Assembly (NCBI RefSeq): GCF_050920415.1
Contig: NZ_CP169309.1
DNA: 64,000 bases
DNA from: Escherichia coli
Lineage (GTDB): Bacteria > Pseudomonadota > Gammaproteobacteria > Enterobacterales > Enterobacteriaceae
Strand: one strand, 5' to 3'
The notes beneath the pieces are model-generated. The model saw only the letters and a list, made by a program, of their open reading frames with translations, was not told the DNA's origin and did not search any database. Shown in pieces: positions 1 through 13,586 of this stretch. Numbering within the stretch: the first letter of the stretch is position 1; each line of letters starts with the position of its first letter. Position numbers and translations under genes: made by a program.

Positions 1-432
1 GCACGACCTGATGCCAGCGAACAAGAGTTACAAACAGCACTGGATAACGCGTGGGTCAGTGAGTTTCTACCGCTCCTGCCACAAGGCGTTGATACGCCTG
101 TTGGCGACCAGGCTGCCCGCCTTTCCGTAGGCCAGGCACAACGTGTGGCGGTGGCGCGTGCATTACTGAATCCCTGTTCGCTATTACTGTTGGATGAACC
201 CGCAGCAAGCCTTGATGCTCACAGTGAACAGCGCGTAATGGAGGCGCTGAATGCCGCCTCTCTGCGCCAGACAACGTTAATGGTCACCCACCAGTTAGAA
301 GATCTTGCTGACTGGGATGTCATTTGGGTAATGCAGGATGGTCAGATTATCGAGCAAGGACGTTACGCGGAATTAAGCGTGGCTGGTGGTCCTTTCGCCA
401 CATTGCTGGCCCATCGTCAGGAGGAGATTTAA
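1..432 (+). CDS. cydD: Cysteine/glutathione ABC exporter CydD, C-terminal part (5' end lies outside the window)
   Basis: Open frame from base 1 to the stop at 430-432; translation has an ABC signature-like LSVGQAQR and Walker B LLLLDEP; directly precedes cydC as in the cydDC operon. Confidence 0.9.
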   Translation, partial: ARPDASEQELQTALDNAWVSEFLPLLPQGVDTPVGDQAARLSVGQAQRVAVARALLNPCSLLLLDEPAASLDAHSEQRVMEALNAASLRQTTLMVTHQLEDLADWDVIWVMQDGQIIEQGRYAELSVAGGPFATLLAHRQEEI

Positions 433-2154
433 ATGCGCGCTTTGCTACCCTATCTGGCACTGTATAAACGTCATAAATGGATGTTAAGTCTTGGTATTGT
501 GCTGGCAATTGTCACGCTGCTCGCCAGTATCGGTCTGTTGACACTTTCCGGCTGGTTCCTCTCGGCCTCAGCGGTAGCGGGGGTTGCCGGACTGTACAGC
601 TTCAACTATATGCTACCCGCTGCGGGCGTGCGTGGTGCAGCAATCACCCGTACTGCCGGGCGCTATTTTGAACGTCTGGTAAGTCACGACGCGACTTTCC
701 GCGTGTTGCAGCATCTGCGCATTTACACCTTCAGCAAATTGCTACCCCTCTCCCCTGCCGGACTGGCGCGCTATCGTCAGGGCGAATTGCTCAACCGCGT
801 CGTGGCGGATGTTGATACGCTCGATCATCTTTACCTGCGCGTTATCTCGCCGCTGGTAGGCGCTTTTGTAGTGATTATGGTGGTGACTATCGGGTTAAGT
901 TTTCTTGATTTCACCCTCGCCTTTACGCTGGGTGGCATTATGTTACTGACGCTTTTCCTGATGCCACCGCTGTTTTATCGTGCGGGAAAAAGCACCGGGC
1001 AAAATCTGACTCATCTTCGCGGGCAGTATCGCCAACAACTGACAGCCTGGCTGCAAGGGCAAGCTGAGCTGACCATTTTTGGTGCCAGCGATCGTTATCG
1101 CACGCAATTAGAGAATACTGAAATTCAGTGGCTGGAAGCGCAACGCCGTCAATCTGAACTGACAGCTTTGTCGCAAGCAATAATGCTGTTAATTGGCGCG
1201 TTAGCGGTGATCCTGATGCTGTGGATGGCGTCTGGCGGCGTTGGTGGCAATACTCAACCAGGCGCGTTAATTGCCCTGTTTGTCTTCTGTGCGTTAGCCG
1301 CGTTTGAAGCACTGGCACCAGTAACGGGTGCATTTCAGCATCTGGGGCAAGTCATTGCCTCTGCCGTACGGATCACCGATTTAACGGATCAAAAACCTGA
1401 AGTCACCTTCCCTGATACCCAAACCCGTGTTGCCGATTGCGTTTCGCTGACGTTACGGGATGTTCAGTTCACTTATCCGGAGCAGTCCCAACAGGCACTT
1501 AAAGGGATTTCTCTTCAGGTAAACGCCGGAGAACATATGGCGATTCTCGGGCGAACCGGATGCGGTAAATCAACATTGTTACAACTGCTGACCCGCGCAT
1601 GGGACCCGCAACAGGGCGAGATTTTAATTAACGATAGCCCCATAGCCAGCCTGAACGAAGCAACTCTACGACAGACCATCAGCGTTGTGCCACAGCGAGT
1701 GCATCTGTTTAGCGCCACACTGCGTGATAATCTGTTACTCGCCTCGCCTGGCAGTAGTGATGAAGTTTTGGCGGAGATCTTGCGTCGAGTTGGTCTGGAG
1801 AAGCTGCTCGAGGATGCAGGTCTCAACAGTTGGTTAGGTGAAGGCGGACGCCAGCTCTCCGGTGGTGAACTGCGCCGTCTGGCTATCGCCCGTGCGCTGT
1901 TACATGATGCGCCACTGGTATTGCTGGATGAACCTACCGAAGGCTTAGATGCCACAACTGAAAGTCAGATCCTTGAATTACTTGCAGAAATGATGCGTGA
2001 GAAAACGGTGTTAATGGTCACCCATCGACTTCGCGGGCTCTCTCGTTTCCAGCAAATAATAGTGATGGACAACGGGCAAATTATTGAGCAAGGTACTCAC
2101 GCAGAACTGCTTGCCCGACAGGGGCGTTATTACCAGTTTAAGCAGGGTTTGTAA
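433..2154 (+). CDS. cydC: Cysteine/glutathione ABC exporter CydC (fused permease and ATPase)
   Basis: 573-aa ORF with N-terminal transmembrane region and C-terminal NBD (GRTGCGKST, LSGGE, LLLDEP); ATG immediately follows the cydD stop. Confidence 0.95.
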   Translation: MRALLPYLALYKRHKWMLSLGIVLAIVTLLASIGLLTLSGWFLSASAVAGVAGLYSFNYMLPAAGVRGAAITRTAGRYFERLVSHDATFRVLQHLRIYTFSKLLPLSPAGLARYRQGELLNRVVADVDTLDHLYLRVISPLVGAFVVIMVVTIGLSFLDFTLAFTLGGIMLLTLFLMPPLFYRAGKSTGQNLTHLRGQYRQQLTAWLQGQAELTIFGASDRYRTQLENTEIQWLEAQRRQSELTALSQAIMLLIGALAVILMLWMASGGVGGNTQPGALIALFVFCALAAFEALAPVTGAFQHLGQVIASAVRITDLTDQKPEVTFPDTQTRVADCVSLTLRDVQFTYPEQSQQALKGISLQVNAGEHMAILGRTGCGKSTLLQLLTRAWDPQQGEILINDSPIASLNEATLRQTISVVPQRVHLFSATLRDNLLLASPGSSDEVLAEILRRVGLEKLLEDAGLNSWLGEGGRQLSGGELRRLAIARALLHDAPLVLLDEPTEGLDATTESQILELLAEMMREKTVLMVTHRLRGLSRFQQIIVMDNGQIIEQGTHAELLARQGRYYQFKQGL

Positions 2155-2195
2155 GCTATTATTGAACGATCCGACTTGCGTGGAGTTTTGCGGTC

Positions 2196-2900
2196 ATGCG
2201 CCTGGTTCAGCTTTCTCGCCATTCAATAGCCTTCCCTTCCCCGGAAGGCGCATTACGTGAGCCTAACGGCCTGCTGGCACTGGGGGGCGATCTTAGCCCT
2301 GCGCGCCTGTTAATGGCTTATCAGCGTGGTATTTTTCCGTGGTTTTCTCCAGGCGACCCCATCCTCTGGTGGTCGCCCGATCCTCGCGCGGTACTATGGC
2401 CTGAATCATTGCATATCAGCCGTAGTATGAAACGATTTCATAAACACTCGCCCTATCGTGTCACGATGAATTACGCCTTTGGTCAGGTCATTGAAGGCTG
2501 TGCCAGCGATCGCGAAGAAGGAACCTGGATCACGCGTGGCGTGGTCGAAGCCTACCATCGCCTTCACGAACTCGGTCATGCCCACTCCATCGAAGTCTGG
2601 TGTGAAGATGAGCTTGTTGGCGGTATGTACGGCGTGGCCCAGGGAACGCTATTTTGTGGCGAGTCCATGTTCAGCCGGATGGAAAACGCGTCCAAAACGG
2701 CGCTACTGGTCTTCTGTGAGGAATTTATCCGTCACGGTGGCAAACTTATCGACTGCCAGGTCCTTAACGATCACACAGCTTCGCTTGGTGCCTGCGAAAT
2801 TCCCCGCCGGGATTATCTAAATTATCTCAATCAAATGCGCCTCGGACGATTGCCGAATAATTTCTGGGTACCACGGTGCTTGTTTTCACCACAAGAATGA
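2196..2900 (+). CDS. aat: Leucyl/phenylalanyl-tRNA--protein transferase
   Basis: 234-aa ORF, length and position (between cydC and infA) match Aat. Confidence 0.93.
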
Positions 2901-3181
2901 ATGTTTTCGGCACATTTCTCCCCAGAGTGTTATAATTGCGGTCGCAGAGTTGGTTACGCTCATTACCCCGCTGCCGATAAGGAATTTTTCGCGTCAGGTA
3001 ACGCCCATCGTTTATCTCACCGCTCCCTTATACGTTGCGCTTTTGGTGCGGCTTAGCCGTGTGTTTTCGGAGTAATGTGCCGAACCTGTTTGTTGCGATT
3101 TAGCGCGCAAATCTTTACTTATTTACAGAACTTCGGCATTATCTTGCCGGTTCAAATTACGGTAGTGATACCCCAGAGGAT

Positions 3182-3403
<222 letters not shown>

Positions 3404-3442
3404 TTGTTTTACCGCCTGATGGGCGAAGAGAAAGAACGCGTA

Positions 3443-3474
3443 AAAGGTCGGTTTAACCGGCCTTTTTATTTTGT
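3443..3474 (+). terminator. Candidate rho-independent terminator downstream of infA
   Basis: Hairpin aaaaggtcgg-ttta-accggcctt followed by tttttatttt. Confidence 0.5.
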
Positions 3475-3577
3475 ACGAAGAACGTTGGAAGTATAAGTAC
3501 ATAACTTGTCTCGATGTAGATATACTGCACAACTTGTTTACAGTATGAGCAAACGAGAATTGTCAGTAAAATTCTTC

Positions 3578-3606
3578 TTGACCGTTTTACTCCAACTCCC
3601 TATAGT
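3578..3606 (+). promoter_or_regulatory. Candidate sigma-70 promoter for serW
   Basis: TTGACC (3578-3583), 17-bp spacer, TATAGT (3601-3606), then a GC-rich discriminator typical of stable-RNA promoters. Confidence 0.4.
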
Positions 3607-3649
3607 AGCGCCCCGTTGCCCCCCATGAGGTCAGGCAGCAAAACAATTT

Positions 3650-3737
3650 GGTGAGGTGTCCGAGTGGCTGAAGGAGCACGCCTGGAAAGTGTGTATACGG
3701 CAACGTATCGGGGGTTCGAATCCCCCCCTCACCGCCA
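3650..3737 (+). tRNA. serW: tRNA-Ser (anticodon GGA), 88 nt including CCA
   Basis: GGTGAGGTGTCCGAGTGGCTGAAGGAGCACGCCTGGAAAGTG...GGGGGTTCGAATCCCCCCCTCACCGCCA; acceptor stem ggtgagg/cctcacc, long variable arm, encoded CCA. Confidence 0.95.
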
Positions 3738-3750
3738 TATTTGAAGAAGA

Positions 3751-3777
3751 GCTCGTACGAAAGTACGGGCTTTTTTT
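3751..3777 (+). terminator. Rho-independent terminator after serW
   Basis: 8-bp stem gctcgtac/gtacgggc with GAAA tetraloop followed by T7. Confidence 0.7.
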
Positions 3778-3787
3778 CGCATTTTAT

Positions 3788-3867
3788 CTGCCTGTACGGC
3801 AGTGAACAAAATTACAAAGCATCAAAACCAGGGAATAGTTTTCTAAGCTGCCTGTACGGCAGTGAAC
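3788..3867. repeat. Two copies of a 20-bp direct repeat ctgcctgtacggcagtgaac (3788-3807 and 3848-3867), each holding a small hairpin
   Basis: Exact 20-bp identity read from the sequence, 60 bp centre to centre. Confidence 0.6.
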
Positions 3868-3926
3868 TCAAATACTACACGTCTAGCCCGTTGTTAATAA
3901 AGCAAAACCATCTCATTTTCCTGCTG

Positions 3927-3945
3927 CCCCCCCCCCCCCCCCCCC
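3927..3945. repeat. Homopolymeric C19 tract followed by T6
   Basis: 19 consecutive C at 3927-3945, then tttttt. Confidence 0.9.
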
Positions 3946-4030
3946 TTTTTTATCCTTACCTTTCAGCTGCACTACTTATCAACAACTTACCATCATCATC
4001 AAAAAAAGGGTCTGAACCTCCTCCACCCCA

Positions 4031-4068
4031 TAAATAAAAAGTCCGTAACCTCTTTCGAGATTACGGAC
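4031..4068 (-). terminator. Candidate rho-independent terminator of clpA
   Basis: Inverted repeat gtccgtaa...ttacggac, followed on the minus strand by tttttattta, just 3' of the clpA stop. Confidence 0.6.
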
Positions 4069-4093
4069 TTCACCAACCTACCTAACAATTAGA

Positions 4094-6370
4094 TTAATGC
4101 GCTGCTTCCGCCTTGTGCTTTTGTGCACTCTGGAATCCGTAAGTCAGCTCATTTTTCTCTTTATCCAGCGCAACCGTCACCTGACCGCCGTCCACCAGCG
4201 AACCAAACAACAGTTCGTTGGCGAGCGGTTTTTTCAGGTTGTCCTGGATGACACGCGCCATCGGACGTGCGCCCATCGCCCGGTCGTAACCTTTCTCGGC
4301 CAGCCAGTTACGCGCTTCCTGGCTCACTTCCAGAGAAACACCTTTCTGATCCAACTGAACCTGCAACTCGACGATGAACTTATCCACCACCTGATGGATC
4401 ACGTCGGTGGAGAGATGATCGAACCAGATAATGTTGTCGAGACGGTTACGGAATTCCGGTGTAAAGATCTTCTTGATCTCTTCCATCGCATCGGTGCTGT
4501 TATCCTGATGGATAAGACCAATCGATTTACGCTCAGTTTCCCGTACCCCGGCATTAGTGGTCATCACCAGCACCACGTTACGGAAGTCCGCTTTGCGTCC
4601 GTTGTTATCGGTCAGCGTACCGTTGTCCATCACCTGCAACAGAATATTGAACACGTCCGGGTGCGCTTTCTCGATTTCGTCCAGCAGCAGCACCGCATGA
4701 GGATGCTTGATGACCGCATCAGTCAGCAAACCGCCCTGATCAAAACCAACGTATCCCGGAGGCGCACCAATCAGACGGCTGACGGTATGGCGTTCCATAT
4801 ACTCGGACATATCAAAGCGTAACAGTTCAATGCCCAGAGCTTTGGAAAGCTGCACCGTCACCTCGGTTTTCCCGACCCCGGTAGGACCAGCAAACAGGAA
4901 CGAACCGACTGGTTTATGTTCGTGACCTAAACCTGCACGCGCCATCTTAATGGCTTCAGTCAGCGCCTCAATGGCTTTATCCTGACCGAAGACCAGCATT
5001 TTCAGGCGATCGCTGAGGTTTTTCAGGGTATCGCGGTCACTCTGAGAAACACTCTTCTCTGGAATGCGCGCAATACGGGCCACCACGGACTCAATATCCG
5101 CCACATTAACGGTTTTCTTGCGTTTGCTTACCGGCATCAGGCGTGCGCGAGCGCCCGCTTCGTCGATAACGTCAATAGCTTTATCCGGCAGATGACGATC
5201 GTTAATGTATTTCACCGCCAGCTCCACCGCAGCACGCACCGCTTTCGCGGTATAACGCACGTCGTGGTGCGCTTCATACTTCGGTTTCAGGCCATTGATG
5301 ATTTGAACAGTTTCTTCGATCGACGGTTCAGTAATATCAATTTTCTGGAAGCGACGCGCCAGAGCACGGTCTTTCTCGAAAATGTTGCTGAACTCCTGAT
5401 AGGTTGTCGAACCAATTACGCGAATTTTACCGCTGGAGAGCAACGGTTTGATCAGGTTAGCCGCATCAACCTGACCACCAGAGGCTGCACCCGCACCGAT
5501 AATGGTGTGGATCTCATCAATAAACAGGATGCTGTTAGTGTCCTGCTCCAGCTGCTTGAGCAACGCTTTAAAACGTTTTTCAAAGTCGCCGCGATATTTT
5601 GTGCCCGCTAACAGAGAACCGATATCGAGAGAGTAAATCGTACAGTCAGCCATCACTTCCGGCACATCGCCCTGAACAATTCGCCAGGCAAGACCTTCCG
5701 CAATCGCGGTTTTGCCGACACCGGATTCCCCCACCAGCAGCGGGTTGTTTTTACGGCGACGGCAGAGAACCTGAATAGCACGCTCCAGCTCCTTCTCACG
5801 ACCAATCAGTGGGTCGATTCCGCCCACACGCGCAAGCTGATTCAGGTTCGTCGTGAAATTCTCCATACGTTCCTCCCCACCAGCTTGTTCTTCGCTGTTT
5901 GGCTGGCTGCCAGGATCAGAAGACTGTGTCGGCTCGTCTTTACGCGTGCCATGAGAGATAAAGTTCACCACATCGAGACGGCTGACTTCATGTTTGCGCA
6001 ACAGATATGCCGCCTGCGACTCCTGTTCGCTAAAGATAGCGACCAGAACGTTTGCACCGGTAACCTCATTGCGACCGGAGGACTGGACATGGAAGACCGC
6101 ACGTTGCAGTACACGCTGAAAACTCAGCGTTGGCTGTGTGTCGCGCTCCTCTTCACTGGCAGGCAGAACGGGTGTGGTTTGTTCAATAAAGGCTTCCAGT
6201 TCCTGACGGAGCGCAACCAAATCCACAGAACACGCTTCCAGCGCCTCCCGGGCAGATGGGTTACTGAGCAGCGCCAGTAACAAGTGCTCGACGGTCATAA
6301 ACTCATGACGGTGCTCGCGCGCTCTGGCGAAAGCCATATTTAAACTGAGTTCCAGTTCTTGATTGAGCAT
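4094..6370 (-). CDS. clpA: ATP-dependent Clp protease ATP-binding subunit ClpA
   Basis: ORF matches ClpA ([31 protein letters not shown]..., two AAA+ modules GESGVGKT and GPTGVGKT); start trimmed to ATG at 6368-6370, preceded by a gggagg SD. Confidence 0.97.
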
Positions 6371-6400
6371 AGGCACCTCCCCCAATTTTTATGCCTGCAT

Positions 6401-6721
6401 TCAGGCTTTTTCTAGCGTACACAGCAATGGATGCTCATTCTCCCTCGCGTACTTGTTCACCATCGCCACTTTGGTTTCTGCAACCTCGGCGGTAAAGACT
6501 CCGCAAATGGCCTTCCCCTGGTAGTGAACAGCGAGCATCAATTGCGTTGCACGTTCTACATCATAAGAAAAGAATTTTTGTAACACGTCAATAACAAACT
6601 CCATCGGAGTGTAATCATCATTGACTAATATCACTTTATACATAGATGGCGGTTTTAGCGCGTCGCGAACTTTTTCTTCCGCCAGTTGATCAAAGTCCAG
6701 CCAGTCGTTCGTTTTACCCAT
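6401..6721 (-). CDS. clpS: Clp protease adaptor ClpS
   Basis: 106-aa [46 protein letters not shown]..., immediately upstream of clpA. Confidence 0.97.
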
Positions 6722-10513: not shown

Positions 10514-11506
10514 ATGGTGAAATCGACGTTATGTATAACCATTGATTTCATGAATATGTCGCAGCTAACTGAACGGACCTTTACGCCATCTGACTCTCTC
10601 AGCAGCCTGTCACTTTTTCTTAGTCTGGCACGTGGACAGTGTCGGCCGGGTAAATTTTGGCATCGCCGTAGTTTTCGCCAGAAATTTTTGCTGCGCTCGT
10701 TGATTATGCCGCGTTTAAGCGTTGAGTGGATGAACGAACTTTCCCACTGGCCTAATCTCCATGTGTTGTTAACGCGCCAGCCGCGACTGCCTGTGCGTCT
10801 GCATCGCCCTTACCTTGCGGCGAATCTTAGCCGCAAGCAATTGCTGGAGGCGTTACGTTACCATTATGCATTGCTCCGTGCCTGCATGTCGGCAGAAGAA
10901 TTCAGCTTATATTTGAATACTCCCGGGCTGCAACTGGCGAAGCTGGAAGGCAAAAACGGCGAGCAGTTCACGCTTGAGCTGACCATGATGATCTCAATGG
11001 ATAAAGAAGGTGACAGCACAATCCTGTTCCGCAACTGCGAAGGTATTCCTCTGGCAGAGATCACCTTTACTCTGTGTGAATACCAGGGGAAAAGAACAAT
11101 GTTTATTGGCGGGCTGCAAGGTGCGAAATGGGAAATTCCACATCAGGAAATCCAGAATGCGACGAAAGCCTGCCACGGGCTATTTCCCAAACGTCTCGTG
11201 ATGGAAGCGGCCTGTCTGTTTGCCCAACGTTTGCAGGTAGAGCAGATCATTGCCGTCAGCAATGAAACGCATATTTACCGCAGCCTGCGTTATCGCGATA
11301 AAGAAGGCAAGATCCATGCAGATTACAACGCTTTCTGGGAGTCGGTTGGCGGCGTATGTGATGCTGAACGCCATTACCGCCTTCCGGCACAGATAGCACG
11401 AAAAGAGATTGCCGAAATCGCCAGTAAAAAACGGGCTGAATACCGTCGGCGCTATGAGATGCTCGACGCTATTCAGCCACAAATGGCCACGATGTTTCGC
11501 GGTTAA
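10514..11506 (+). CDS. ybjX: DUF535/VirK-family protein YbjX
   Basis: 330-aa ORF in the position and at the length recalled for ybjX; exact start not verified. Confidence 0.8.
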   Translation: MVKSTLCITIDFMNMSQLTERTFTPSDSLSSLSLFLSLARGQCRPGKFWHRRSFRQKFLLRSLIMPRLSVEWMNELSHWPNLHVLLTRQPRLPVRLHRPYLAANLSRKQLLEALRYHYALLRACMSAEEFSLYLNTPGLQLAKLEGKNGEQFTLELTMMISMDKEGDSTILFRNCEGIPLAEITFTLCEYQGKRTMFIGGLQGAKWEIPHQEIQNATKACHGLFPKRLVMEAACLFAQRLQVEQIIAVSNETHIYRSLRYRDKEGKIHADYNAFWESVGGVCDAERHYRLPAQIARKEIAEIASKKRAEYRRRYEMLDAIQPQMATMFRG

Positions 11507-13161
11507 TCCGCGCGACCGCGCGCCAGCCACAGCACGCGTGAGAACATTTTTTTCAGCAGCGTCGGTACGGAGTCCACACCACGACGGCCGGCCTCCATTG
11601 CCACTTCAATGGCAAGATCGGGTTTGGAAGAGCGATGGATCGCTTTCGAGATAATTTTACGCAGATTCATCGGCACATTTTCCGGGATCTGCGCCACGCG
11701 GTGGAACACATCGGAAAATCCCTGGCGATACATAAAATGTTCCATATCCAGCGCCGGTAACGCCGTTAAATGTTCTCGTTCGGCTTCCCGATCGTTATTC
11801 AACAGGCTGCGTACCGTAGCGGCATACTTCTTCCCGGCTTCATCGCCATCGACCAGCACATGCCATTCAATCCCCATTCGACGGGCGAATTTAACCAGTG
11901 GCTTTAGCCCGGACTGGGCAAACTCAATGACCTTGATCCCTTCGGCATCAAAATGATGTCCACACTGACGCGCCAGTTCATTGATAACCCAGGTTTCCGT
12001 TTCGCCTTCCACCAGCAGCCAGCAGCGAGCAAACAGCGATGACGGACGATTAAAACGAATGTGGAAAGAGATGCGTCGGCTATCTTCGGTACTCAAGCCA
12101 CTCGGCCCCAGACGCCAGGCGGCAACGCGAGAGGACTCACGTACCAGTCGGCAAACATGCTCTACCGGCGTTAACGAAAGCAACTCACCCGAGTTGGTGG
12201 TGGCAATGCGCTGCAATGGCAGAAGATTCAACAGATGCCAGGCAACTGAAAGCATAATAGGGTGTAAACGCGTTTCTGGATCTTCAATCAGCAATAATGG
12301 ACGTGCGTCTTTATCGAGCCGCAATGTGCCTTTTGCCTGCAATAAAGTAGCAAACAGGCCGAGCAAAATAACCCGATACGAGCGCCCTCCAGGCCGGTCA
12401 ATCATCCGGTTGATGATATCCAGATAGCGCCAGCTTCGTTGCTCATTGCTGGCTCGCCGCCGCATTAAACGATATCGCGCCTGTCCGGCCCCCTGCTCAG
12501 AGAAATAATGCTCAAGCAGTTGCACCATTGCGGAAAGTCCCTGACGAATCTGCCCATCAGAGAGATTTTGCGGATGTGAGGATAACTCACGGGCGAGGAA
12601 ATCGAGCTGGCGCGCGGTGACTTCCACATTAGGGACATTTGGCACCGTGCCGTTACGAATACGGCGCATAAAGCGGGCATCACGCAAGCGCAGCACCGGC
12701 ATTAAACGCACCAGATGGCGTGCCTGATCGTTAATATCCTCGACATCAATCGGATGTCCGTCTTTATCGAGAAAACTGCGGAGTGTCATCACGCTGCCGT
12801 CTTCCGCACTCTCCCCTTCCAGACGATAAAAAATACGGTGATAGCCATCGGTGCATGGCGTCCAGCACGCTTCCAGCGGCCGATAGCGGCGAACCCGATG
12901 TCGGCCTGGCAGAGATTCGCGGAAGGTCAAAATAATATGCAGATGATGTTCTCGCCCGTTGATATCTCCCGGCGGGAACCAGAAATCGTCGCGCTCAAAA
13001 TGGTAGAGATCTGATTCTGGCGATAGCAGCAGAGTTAAGGCGTCCAGCAAGCTGGATTTACCCCACGCGTTCTCCCCAATCAGGACGTTGTTTTGTTCCA
13101 GCATCAACGACAAACGGTTGATACCGCGAAAACCCACAATTTCAACGCGCTCAAGAATCAT
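11503..13161 (-). CDS. ybjD: OLD-family ATPase/nuclease-like protein YbjD
   Basis: 552-aa ORF with N-terminal P-loop LIGENAWGKSSLLDAL; position and length match ybjD. Confidence 0.85.
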   Translation of the reverse strand: MILERVEIVGFRGINRLSLMLEQNNVLIGENAWGKSSLLDALTLLLSPESDLYHFERDDFWFPPGDINGREHHLHIILTFRESLPGRHRVRRYRPLEACWTPCTDGYHRIFYRLEGESAEDGSVMTLRSFLDKDGHPIDVEDINDQARHLVRLMPVLRLRDARFMRRIRNGTVPNVPNVEVTARQLDFLARELSSHPQNLSDGQIRQGLSAMVQLLEHYFSEQGAGQARYRLMRRRASNEQRSWRYLDIINRMIDRPGGRSYRVILLGLFATLLQAKGTLRLDKDARPLLLIEDPETRLHPIMLSVAWHLLNLLPLQRIATTNSGELLSLTPVEHVCRLVRESSRVAAWRLGPSGLSTEDSRRISFHIRFNRPSSLFARCWLLVEGETETWVINELARQCGHHFDAEGIKVIEFAQSGLKPLVKFARRMGIEWHVLVDGDEAGKKYAATVRSLLNNDREAEREHLTALPALDMEHFMYRQGFSDVFHRVAQIPENVPMNLRKIISKAIHRSSKPDLAIEVAMEAGRRGVDSVPTLLKKMFSRVLWLARGRAD

Positions 13162-13586
13162 ATCCCCTCCAGAAATATGTGACTTATCCTTTACGCTGGC
13201 AGTATAACGGGAAAGGCCTTGCTAATACGTGATGACATCACATTTAAGCATGGCAAATGTCTGAAAAATGAGCGAATAATCGCGTTATACTCCCTCTTGC
13301 TGATAAGTCTGCAAAAACAACAAAATCAAATAATTAGCATGATAAATTATTTTTTATTACGCCTAAAGGATTAAATCTTTTGCTTGCACTACACTGTCAA
13401 TCAGACAAATGACTATATGGGGCAACCCGCTGTTGCCCTAAATCAAATTTACTGGATTTATTTATCTGGTGAATGACTCGCCTTCGTTTTTAAAATAGCC
13501 GCGCATTATTTCCGTCGTCACTTTTTTACGACGACCCTATAAAACGACCATATTTTTCACAGGGTCAATTTTTAATTGAGGTGGAT

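Follow-up and report, generated by a model that had tools for sequence, protein, structure and literature searches.

The DNA analysed here is a stretch of 64,000 nucleotides (nt) from Escherichia coli, hereafter the window, and the gene under study in it is ybjD, also named oldB. An open reading frame (ORF) of 552 amino acids begins with ATG on the minus strand and runs from position 13161 down to 11503; the plus-strand frame across the same interval contains many stops and is closed. An ORF of this length had been placed at 11503-13161 by the first-pass annotation, which gave no strand, and it was recovered as described. The N-terminus of the protein reads MILERVEIVGFRGINRL, and the 5' end of the gene agrees with a published ybjD cloning primer (PMC13261556). 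The protein is identical to RefSeq WP_000599806.1, and in E. coli MFDS1022581, where the DNA is 100% identical, the same sequence is labelled 'ybjD: ATP-dependent endonuclease'. The gene order in the annotation of that genome is poxB-hcr-hcp-lysO-aqpZ-ybjD-ybjX-macA-macB-cspD, and the housekeeping neighbourhood described earlier was confirmed, in the order hcp-lysO-aqpZ-ybjD-ybjX-macAB. The gene is E. coli ybjD/oldB (b0876; COG3593), an already known and previously described ATPase-nuclease of the OLD (overcoming lysogenization defect) family. YbjD of the window differs from other E. coli alleles by 2-7 residues, and its DNA is 2-4% diverged from most E. coli, nearly all at synonymous sites. 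DNA identity of at least 99% over ybjD was observed in one complete genome (MFDS1022581) of 5426; the remainder lie at 95.9-99%, with the protein nearly unchanged. Since just one complete genome is this close, the window comes from a lineage seldom represented among the complete E. coli genomes, judged at least by the ybjD locus.

Two Pfam families cover most of YbjD. DUF2813 matches residues 1-375 (E value 3.5e-160) and OLD-like_TOPRIM matches residues 376-440 (E value 7.8e-16). The best PADLOC model is GajA (PDLC00094, 7e-80), whose match reaches the C-terminus of the model, followed by Old at 2e-24. OLD-family membership, as proposed in the first-pass annotation, is confirmed, and the Toprim domain expected in the C-terminal half is present. 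The NCBIfam scan of YbjD returned no model at cut-off and gave P-loop-level matches only. A profile was built from 57 family members at 28-54% identity to YbjD; it matched Thermus scotoductus OLD (Ts OLD, 6p74) at 6.6e-21 and B. cereus GajA at 8.5e-20. The functional residues of YbjD were mapped by aligning this profile to the experimentally defined residues of Ts OLD. The ABC-type P-loop predicted near the N-terminus is indeed found in LIGENAWGKSSLLDAL (residues 27-42), which includes a canonical GxxxxGKS Walker A. In the ATPase domain, K35 corresponds to K34 of Ts OLD (Walker A), E293 to E276 (Walker B), H300 to H283 (D-loop), and N323 to H310 (H-loop). Asn at the H-loop position is a documented and common variant among active class 1 OLDs (PMC7049728). 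In the Toprim domain, E385 corresponds to E377 (metal A), E389 to D381 (metal B), and D438/D440 to D431/D433 (metal A). By this alignment, metal A would be held by E385, D438, and D440 and metal B by E389.

The AlphaFold2 model of YbjD was obtained with a predicted local distance difference test (pLDDT) score of 88 and a predicted template modelling (pTM) score of 0.87. It comprises an ABC head, an insertion at residues 179-277, a Toprim fold at 380-467, and a helical C-terminus at 473-548. The head structurally resembles the DNA-binding heads of SMC, Rad50, and RecF. The insertion lies between ATPase strands and consists of four helices (179-195, 202-223, 242-255, and 259-277), and the loops 172-176 and 224-241 have low pLDDT. 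At the equivalent position Ts OLD carries a four-helix dimerisation insert (PMC7049728). YbjD accordingly shows the marks of an OLD protein: an N-terminal ABC-type ATPase with a Walker A of the form GxxxxGK[ST], a predicted helical insertion in the ATPase fold, a Walker B Glu, a D-loop His, an H-loop Asn, and a C-terminal Toprim with its Glu, DxD, metal B ligands, and Lys.

The last 110 residues of YbjD had no match in the PDB by sequence, and the C-terminal domain was therefore judged by fold. A separate model of residues 372-552 (pLDDT 96) was best matched by the C-terminal regions of the class 2 proteins of B. pseudomallei (Bp OLD) and X. campestris (Xcc OLD), with fold-match scores (TMq) of 0.72-0.76. 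GajA came next (TMq up to 0.61) and Ts OLD matched poorly (TMq 0.39). Both structure models contain a short 'Insert 3' helix at residues 458-464, between alpha3 and beta4. In contrast, Ts OLD has neither the Insert-3 helix nor the C-terminal helical domain of the class 2 proteins (Schiltz 2020, PMC7049728). The catalytic Arg/Lys also differs between the classes: in Ts OLD it comes from a loop 7 residues past the metal-B Glu, whereas in class 2 Bp OLD it is K562 of the helical domain (Schiltz 2020, PMC7049728). In YbjD an invariant Gly occupies the +7 position (residue 481), and the Lys that never varies, K513, belongs to an S-K-P motif that opens a C-terminal helix. YbjD thus departs from all three structural marks of class 1, namely no Insert-3 helix, no helical domain, and an Arg/Lys at about +7. 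With class 2 OLD (6nk8/6njw) and B. cereus GajA (8sm3/8u7i) it shares the Toprim, the Insert-3 helix, the helical domain, and a Lys within that domain. The models indicate that the C-terminal half of YbjD is class 2-like (Gabija-type) and unlike the Thermus class 1 OLD. The fold matches also suggest the spatial roles of D472, E474, and K513.

Judged by gene context, however, ybjD is class 1, an isolated gene. It has no adjacent UvrD-like helicase, no reverse transcriptase or noncoding RNA, and no split AriA/AriB partner. Its neighbours are aqpZ, which is divergent, and ybjX, which is convergent, and the same holds in 80 orthologous loci, though ybjX is often missing. The 'class 1' label of the first-pass annotation is thus right for the standalone context and does not fit the predicted C-terminal architecture. 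YbjD does share the standalone gene, the domain order, and the OLD-type ATPase motifs (Walker B Glu, D-loop His, and a degenerate signature motif) with the class 1 proteins Ts OLD, phage P2 Old, and Vibrio cholerae Vc OLD, and like Vc OLD it is RecBCD-independent. P2 Old, on the other hand, is about 18% identical to YbjD (PMC6755086) and needs both RecBC inactivation and its nuclease residues. P2 Old and Vc OLD are accessory or mobile, whereas ybjD is core.

ybjD was found in 5424 of the 5426 complete E. coli genomes, always at coverage of at least 80%, with a median of one copy and DNA identity of 95.9-100%. A scan with one genome per species recovered full-length orthologues in every sampled Enterobacteriaceae genus and in Pectobacterium, Brenneria, Samsonia, Serratia, and Hafnia. 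The protein identity tracks phylogeny, from 97% in E. albertii and 91% in Citrobacter through 84-87% in Klebsiella and Enterobacter, 80% in Buttiauxella, and 75% in Mangrovibacter to 64-68% in other families. Homologues were also seen in Yersinia (65%), Proteus (56%), Aeromonas (45%), and Vibrio and Salinivibrio (42-43%), as chromosome or chromid records in the plasmid collection; the named members of the family cluster are from Vibrio, Tatumella, and Motilimonas. The order hcp-lysO-(aqpZ)-ybjD-(ybjX)-macAB is kept across the sampled Enterobacterales loci, and within each locus the identity of YbjD is about the same as that of MacA, MacB, and LysO. The overall result indicated that ybjD is a vertically inherited, single-copy core gene throughout Enterobacterales.

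Selection on ybjD was measured as the ratio of non-synonymous to synonymous substitution rates (dN/dS, Nei-Gojobori). With E. albertii the value is 0.015 and with Citrobacter 0.033, and it reaches 0.046-0.067 with Enterobacter and Klebsiella; these are equal to or below those of MacB, LysO, and AqpZ. In every comparison the dN of residues 376-552 is below that of residues 1-375. Within Escherichia, 39-206 nt differences give 2-14 amino acid changes only. The ORF is intact, at 550-556 amino acids, in all 80 orthologous loci, and all catalytic residues of both domains, K35, E293, H300, and N323 included, are invariant in the 80 Enterobacterales orthologues. Among the 57 more distant relatives the nuclease residues remain fixed, with E385, E389, D440, D472, E474, and K513 in 57/57 and D438 in 56/57. 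The ATPase residues are looser: at position 35, 50 relatives have K, 6 have R, and 1 has S, E293 is kept in 51 of 57, and position 323 is N, H, Q, or Y. Purifying selection acts on ybjD as strongly as on the housekeeping genes around it, and the tightest constraint falls on the nuclease half.

Although YbjD has the architecture of Gabija GajA, a GajB/UvrD-like helicase lies beside ybjD in none of the 80 orthologous loci, and ybjD is core, vertically inherited, and outside defence islands. Such a helicase is also absent beside 11 of 13 sampled members of the DUF2813 family, which stand alone. A true Gabija pair was found on IMG/VR contig L094 (UViG_3300021604_000070). Its 570-amino-acid GajA aligns end to end with PADLOC GajA PDLC00094 (757 bits), carries Pfam DUF2813 and the OLD Toprim, and is 31% identical to YbjD over residues 1-548, the S-K-P helix included. 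The GajB helicase (PDLC00114, 882 bits) overlaps the GajA gene by 4 bp. Both lie in a compact defence island (L094:135-11066), between an HmaC-like ATPase (HmaC model of the Hma defence system) and a type IIG restriction-methyltransferase. A 57%-identical relative, P0264 on contig L099, has the same GajA-GajB arrangement with a 4-bp overlap, beside a PDC-M24B candidate. The true GajA+GajB lineage is part of the DUF2813 family that includes YbjD. In a neighbour-joining tree the two GajB-linked proteins form a small clade among standalone DUF2813 members. Since this tree is star-like and without support values, no direction was drawn as to whether the standalone or the GajB-linked state is ancestral.

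Two further observations concern distant members of the family. P0149 (L084:2068-7671), P0162, and P0175/P0290 (L088:6001-10446) are YbjD-family proteins of 1000-1900 amino acids. They retain a normal N-terminus, the Toprim core, and the C-terminal S-K-P helix, but these parts are split by low-complexity insertions of very large size, which follow residue ~60 and also separate the metal-B DxE from the lysine helix. In addition, a SLOG/LOG-like gene (Pfam LDcluster4 PF18306 and Lysine_decarbox) stands beside or near distant DUF2813 OLD genes on three unrelated metagenomic contigs (P0219; P0217, L098:4635-5453; P0186, L100:4918-5607). L100 additionally carries a beta-CASP/metallo-beta-lactamase nuclease that gives a weak Apyc1-like match. 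The SLOG/LOG-like gene and the DUF2813 OLD gene may form a recurrent two-gene module.

No mobile copy of ybjD was found. Among the 50,697 phage records of INPHARED there was no real copy of the YbjD clade, and the single match was a 2-kb fragment of E. coli DNA. The 2.9 million contigs of IMG/VR gave two matches only, of which one is host flank and the other is the distant GajA (31%). True plasmids carry no ybjD; the 'plasmid' matches are chromosomes or chromids. A phage origin of ybjD, to which a strong match with phrog_4747 could point, was rejected on these results. The phrog_4747 family ('unknown function') matches YbjD at 2.9e-116, and the only close IMG/VR match, L093 at 100% identity, looks like host DNA flanking a prophage. 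This phrog may have been built from host-flank contamination. ybjD shows none of the population marks of a typical defence gene, namely patchy distribution, residence in a defence island or on a mobile element, and rapid turnover.

The features of the locus are collected in Table 1. The ribosome-binding site of ybjD, GGAGG, precedes the ATG by 5 nt and is conserved across genera. About 40 nt upstream of the ATG, a TATACT box lies inside CCGcTATACTGC (at least 90% conserved; 13 of 14 enterobacterial genera). No recognisable -35 element accompanies the box in the 14-genus alignment, where the remainder of the aqpZ-ybjD intergenic region is not conserved. A sigma-70 consensus scan upstream of ybjD found no promoter, and the TATACT box was seen only through the cross-genus alignment. 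Because the CCGcTATACTGC box is conserved at this distance across genera, the alignment suggests that ybjD has its own promoter. Regulation by the SOS response was rejected, as no LexA-box-like site (CTGT-N8-ACAG, at most one mismatch) occurs in 13162-13580, the ybjD-aqpZ intergenic region.

Table 1. Features of the ybjD locus (positions in the window)
Feature	Position	Strand	Basis and details
ybjD (oldB) coding sequence	11503..13161	-	552 amino acids and stop; ORF list; identical to RefSeq WP_000599806.1
N-terminal ABC-type ATPase region	12037..13161	-	Residues 1-375; Pfam DUF2813
Walker A / P-loop GENAWGKS	13054..13077	-	Residues 29-36, K35; read from sequence; aligns to Ts OLD K34
Four-helix insertion of the ATPase domain, predicted dimerisation domain	12331..12627	-	Residues ~179-277; AlphaFold2 model
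Walker B / D-loop LLLIEDPETRLHP	12259..12297	-	Residues 289-301; E293, D294, H300; hidden Markov model alignment to Ts OLD
Toprim nuclease domain	11761..12036	-	Residues 376-467; Pfam OLD-like_TOPRIM and alignment to Ts OLD E377/D381/D431/D433
C-terminal helical domain	11506..11760	-	Residues 468-552; D472/E474 putative metal B ligands; invariant S-K513-P motif
ybjD 5' region: -10-like TATACT (13201-13206) and GGAGG ribosome-binding site (13166-13170)	13166..13206	-	14-genus alignment
TTAA, overlapping stop codons of ybjD (-) and ybjX (+)	11503-11506		Palindrome, TAA on either strand; 4-bp overlap
ybjX	10550..11506	+	VirK/YbjX family; convergent with ybjD

The convergent 4-bp overlap with ybjX that had been noted earlier was found to be a TTAA shared by the two stop codons, and RNA-seq data list ybjD-ybjX as a convergent excludon (PMC12288877). 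In other genera the YbjX match ends 3 to ~40 nt farther from ybjD (tblastn coordinates), and ybjX has been lost in Klebsiella, Raoultella, Trabulsiella odontotermitis, and Pectobacterium. The overlap therefore appears to be confined to Escherichia loci. YbjX of E. coli and Citrobacter share 57% amino acid identity against ~90% for the neighbours, with dN/dS of 0.07-0.23. A role of ybjX as functional partner was rejected considering its ~3-5x faster evolution, its loss in several genera, and an overlap seen only in Escherichia loci; YbjX is not an obligate partner, because it is far more divergent and is missing in Klebsiella, Raoultella, and Pectobacterium. Elsewhere in the window, positions 1-6640 hold a P4-like or satellite-type integrated mobile element beside yljB/cspD, about 5 kb from ybjD (RefSeq annotation). 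Its genes include a tyrosine integrase (5401-6639), a helix-turn-helix regulator, YlcI/YnfO, an Icd-like division inhibitor, DUF4222, a DNA primase (1412-3229), a single-stranded DNA-binding protein, and a major capsid protein at the window edge.

The description of ybjD as functionally uncharacterised in the first-pass annotation is outdated. E. coli YbjD (b0876) was the seed of the OLD-family survey of Schiltz et al. 2019, in which E. coli stands among the class 1 isolated-gene members (PMC6755086). Atahualpa et al. 2026 studied ybjD directly, proposed the name oldB, and reported that the gene is expressed (PMC13261556). The plaque assays once suggested as a check, with deletion and overexpression strains, were carried out there. 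The Keio ybjD knockout had the same susceptibility as its parent to 68 BASEL phages. Expression from pBAD with 0.001% arabinose, in contrast, lowered the plating of Bas18 and Bas20 and gave smaller plaques of Bas64-68 among the 68 phages, a weak and atypical effect on two phages by plating and five by plaque size (PMC13261556). These phenotypes survived point mutation of the three acidic Toprim residues and even removal of the entire Toprim domain (construct 1-377), and they were abolished by deletion of the ATPase domain (PMC13261556). With K35A they were kept and toxicity was higher (PMC13261556). YbjD differs from P2 Old in that it leaves a recBC(ts) strain alive, and RecBC is not involved (PMC13261556). 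Literature under 'DUF2813' or 'b0876' gave nothing further on the gene. Elsewhere ybjD is mentioned as a site used in strain construction, in omics tables, or as the name 'ybjD' given to GajA genes of SGI1.

The best explanation overall, which we place just on the probable side, is that ybjD/oldB encodes an OLD ATPase with a two-metal Toprim nuclease and is a vertically inherited core gene with a constitutive chromosomal role. Both catalytic sets are intact: an N-terminal ABC-type ATPase with a predicted four-helix oligomerisation insert is fused to the C-terminal two-metal Toprim nuclease, which the helical domain with its invariant lysine would complete. YbjD would then work as a homo-oligomeric nuclease or nickase gated by nucleotide binding. 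ATP binding may hold it inactive, by analogy with GajA, which is inhibited by ATP as quoted in PMC12796447; the published extra toxicity of K35A is consistent with such gating. The function under selection would need the nuclease and would be constitutive, either genome or nucleic-acid maintenance or a conserved last-line surveillance, and would differ from the task of an anti-phage module that is mobile and evolves quickly. The weak anti-phage effect, which does not depend on the Toprim, probably arises as a by-product when the ATPase/oligomerisation domain is in excess. Several points weigh against this explanation. The putative housekeeping role is argued from conservation, and the sole recorded phenotypes of the protein are anti-phage. 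Conserved core genes can still be immune genes, and the phage or trigger that matters may be missing from a laboratory panel of 68 coliphages. The ATP gating is drawn by analogy from GajA and one published mutant, and the catalytic role of K513 is deduced from its invariance and from model-based fold matches to Bp OLD.

The main alternative is that ybjD is a dedicated single-gene anti-phage system of class 1 OLD type, which would sense infection and respond by cell killing, by cell arrest, or by cutting phage DNA, with a trigger outside the phages sampled. It was suggested in the first-pass annotation and is also the framing of the 2026 paper (PMC13261556). We regard it as rather unlikely, yet it stays plausible, because all relatives of known function except Cran1 are immune proteins. 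OLD-family relatives act in P2 Old, Vc OLD, Gabija, and retron Eco8, and DUF2813 also includes the GajA+GajB lineage of defence islands, whose GajA shares 31% identity with YbjD along its full length. The overexpression phenotypes on Bas18/Bas20 plating and Bas64-68 plaque size, together with the toxicity of K35A, point in the same direction (PMC13261556). However, the knockout equals its parent against the 68 phages although ybjD is expressed (PMC13261556), and the phenotype persists without the Toprim, whose catalytic residues are the most conserved part of YbjD. The gene is moreover universal, single-copy, and syntenic, with dN/dS of 0.015-0.07 and no diversifying signal, and it lies outside defence islands and is absent from phages and true plasmids. 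The 'cryptic defence gene' of the first-pass annotation is only partly supported: it has the weak restriction on overexpression and the OLD relatives in its favour, but the silent knockout, the dispensable Toprim, the core distribution, the low dN/dS, and the lack of phage copies speak against it. No less likely is a conserved nuclease with a housekeeping or surveillance role.

The same strong conservation would also fit a housekeeping role on RNA, in which YbjD would be an RNA-directed Toprim nuclease that processes or cleaves tRNA or rRNA in stress-responsive control of translation. RNase M5 has an active site that is mirrored in the OLD Toprim (PMC6755086), and P2 Old was reported to cleave host tRNA in the anticodon arm (Govande 2025, as cited in PMC13261556). 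This role is nevertheless improbable in our judgement. No direct evidence for it came from this analysis, the nearest structural relatives (GajA, Bp/Xcc OLD, and Ts OLD) are DNA nucleases or nickases, and the ATPase head is like the DNA-binding heads of SMC, Rad50, and RecF. At the far end stands the idea that 'cryptic' means inactive, so that ybjD would be a decaying or functionless remnant of an old defence gene, kept by chance. The missing knockout phenotype (PMC13261556), the low expression, and the replacement of the H-loop His by Asn323 could be read in this way. But 80/80 orthologous loci keep an intact ORF in which no catalytic residue varies, dN/dS of 0.015-0.07 is equal to or below that of MacB, LysO, and AqpZ, and 39-206 nt changes yield just 2-14 amino acid changes within Escherichia; Asn at the H-loop, too, is common among active class 1 OLDs (PMC7049728). 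The selection data exclude a decaying pseudogene, and we give the remnant idea as a whole hardly any credence.

For the constitutive chromosomal role a precedent is archaeal Cran1, a class 5 OLD of Sulfolobales (PMC12796447). Like YbjD, Cran1 is conserved throughout an order, keeps its gene neighbourhood, and has all of its active-site residues conserved; it also has an alpha-helical insertion in the Toprim and is apparently not a defence gene (PMC12796447). Unlike ybjD, whose knockout is viable, it is essential and cell-cycle regulated, and the two are likened here by description. Cran1 shows that an order-conserved, syntenic, and apparently non-defence fate exists within the OLD family. Taken further, YbjD might be the bacterial counterpart of Cran1, a proposal that we consider possible rather than probable. 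It would be a Gabija-type nuclease without a dedicated helicase, chromosomally fixed in the common ancestor of Enterobacterales, Vibrionales, and Aeromonadales. Its role on nucleic acids would be housekeeping or stress-linked, ATP-gated, and possibly exerted together with UvrD or Rep. Overexpression of the ATPase domain would then account for the anti-phage effect as an artefact, and the protein would not be primarily immune.

The gene itself is not a discovery, since it is annotated, seeded the OLD classification, and was experimentally tested in 2026. The remaining interest lies in its native function and in the mismatch between its class label and its architecture. There is a tension in that the sole published phenotype is independent of the nuclease domain, yet the catalytic residues of that domain are the most invariant part of YbjD. 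ybjD is therefore a tractable case, in a model organism, for the native job of a conserved, non-mobile OLD nuclease. It also raises a second question for the family, as OLD classes defined by gene context may hide structurally distinct lineages, here a Gabija-like nuclease without a helicase.

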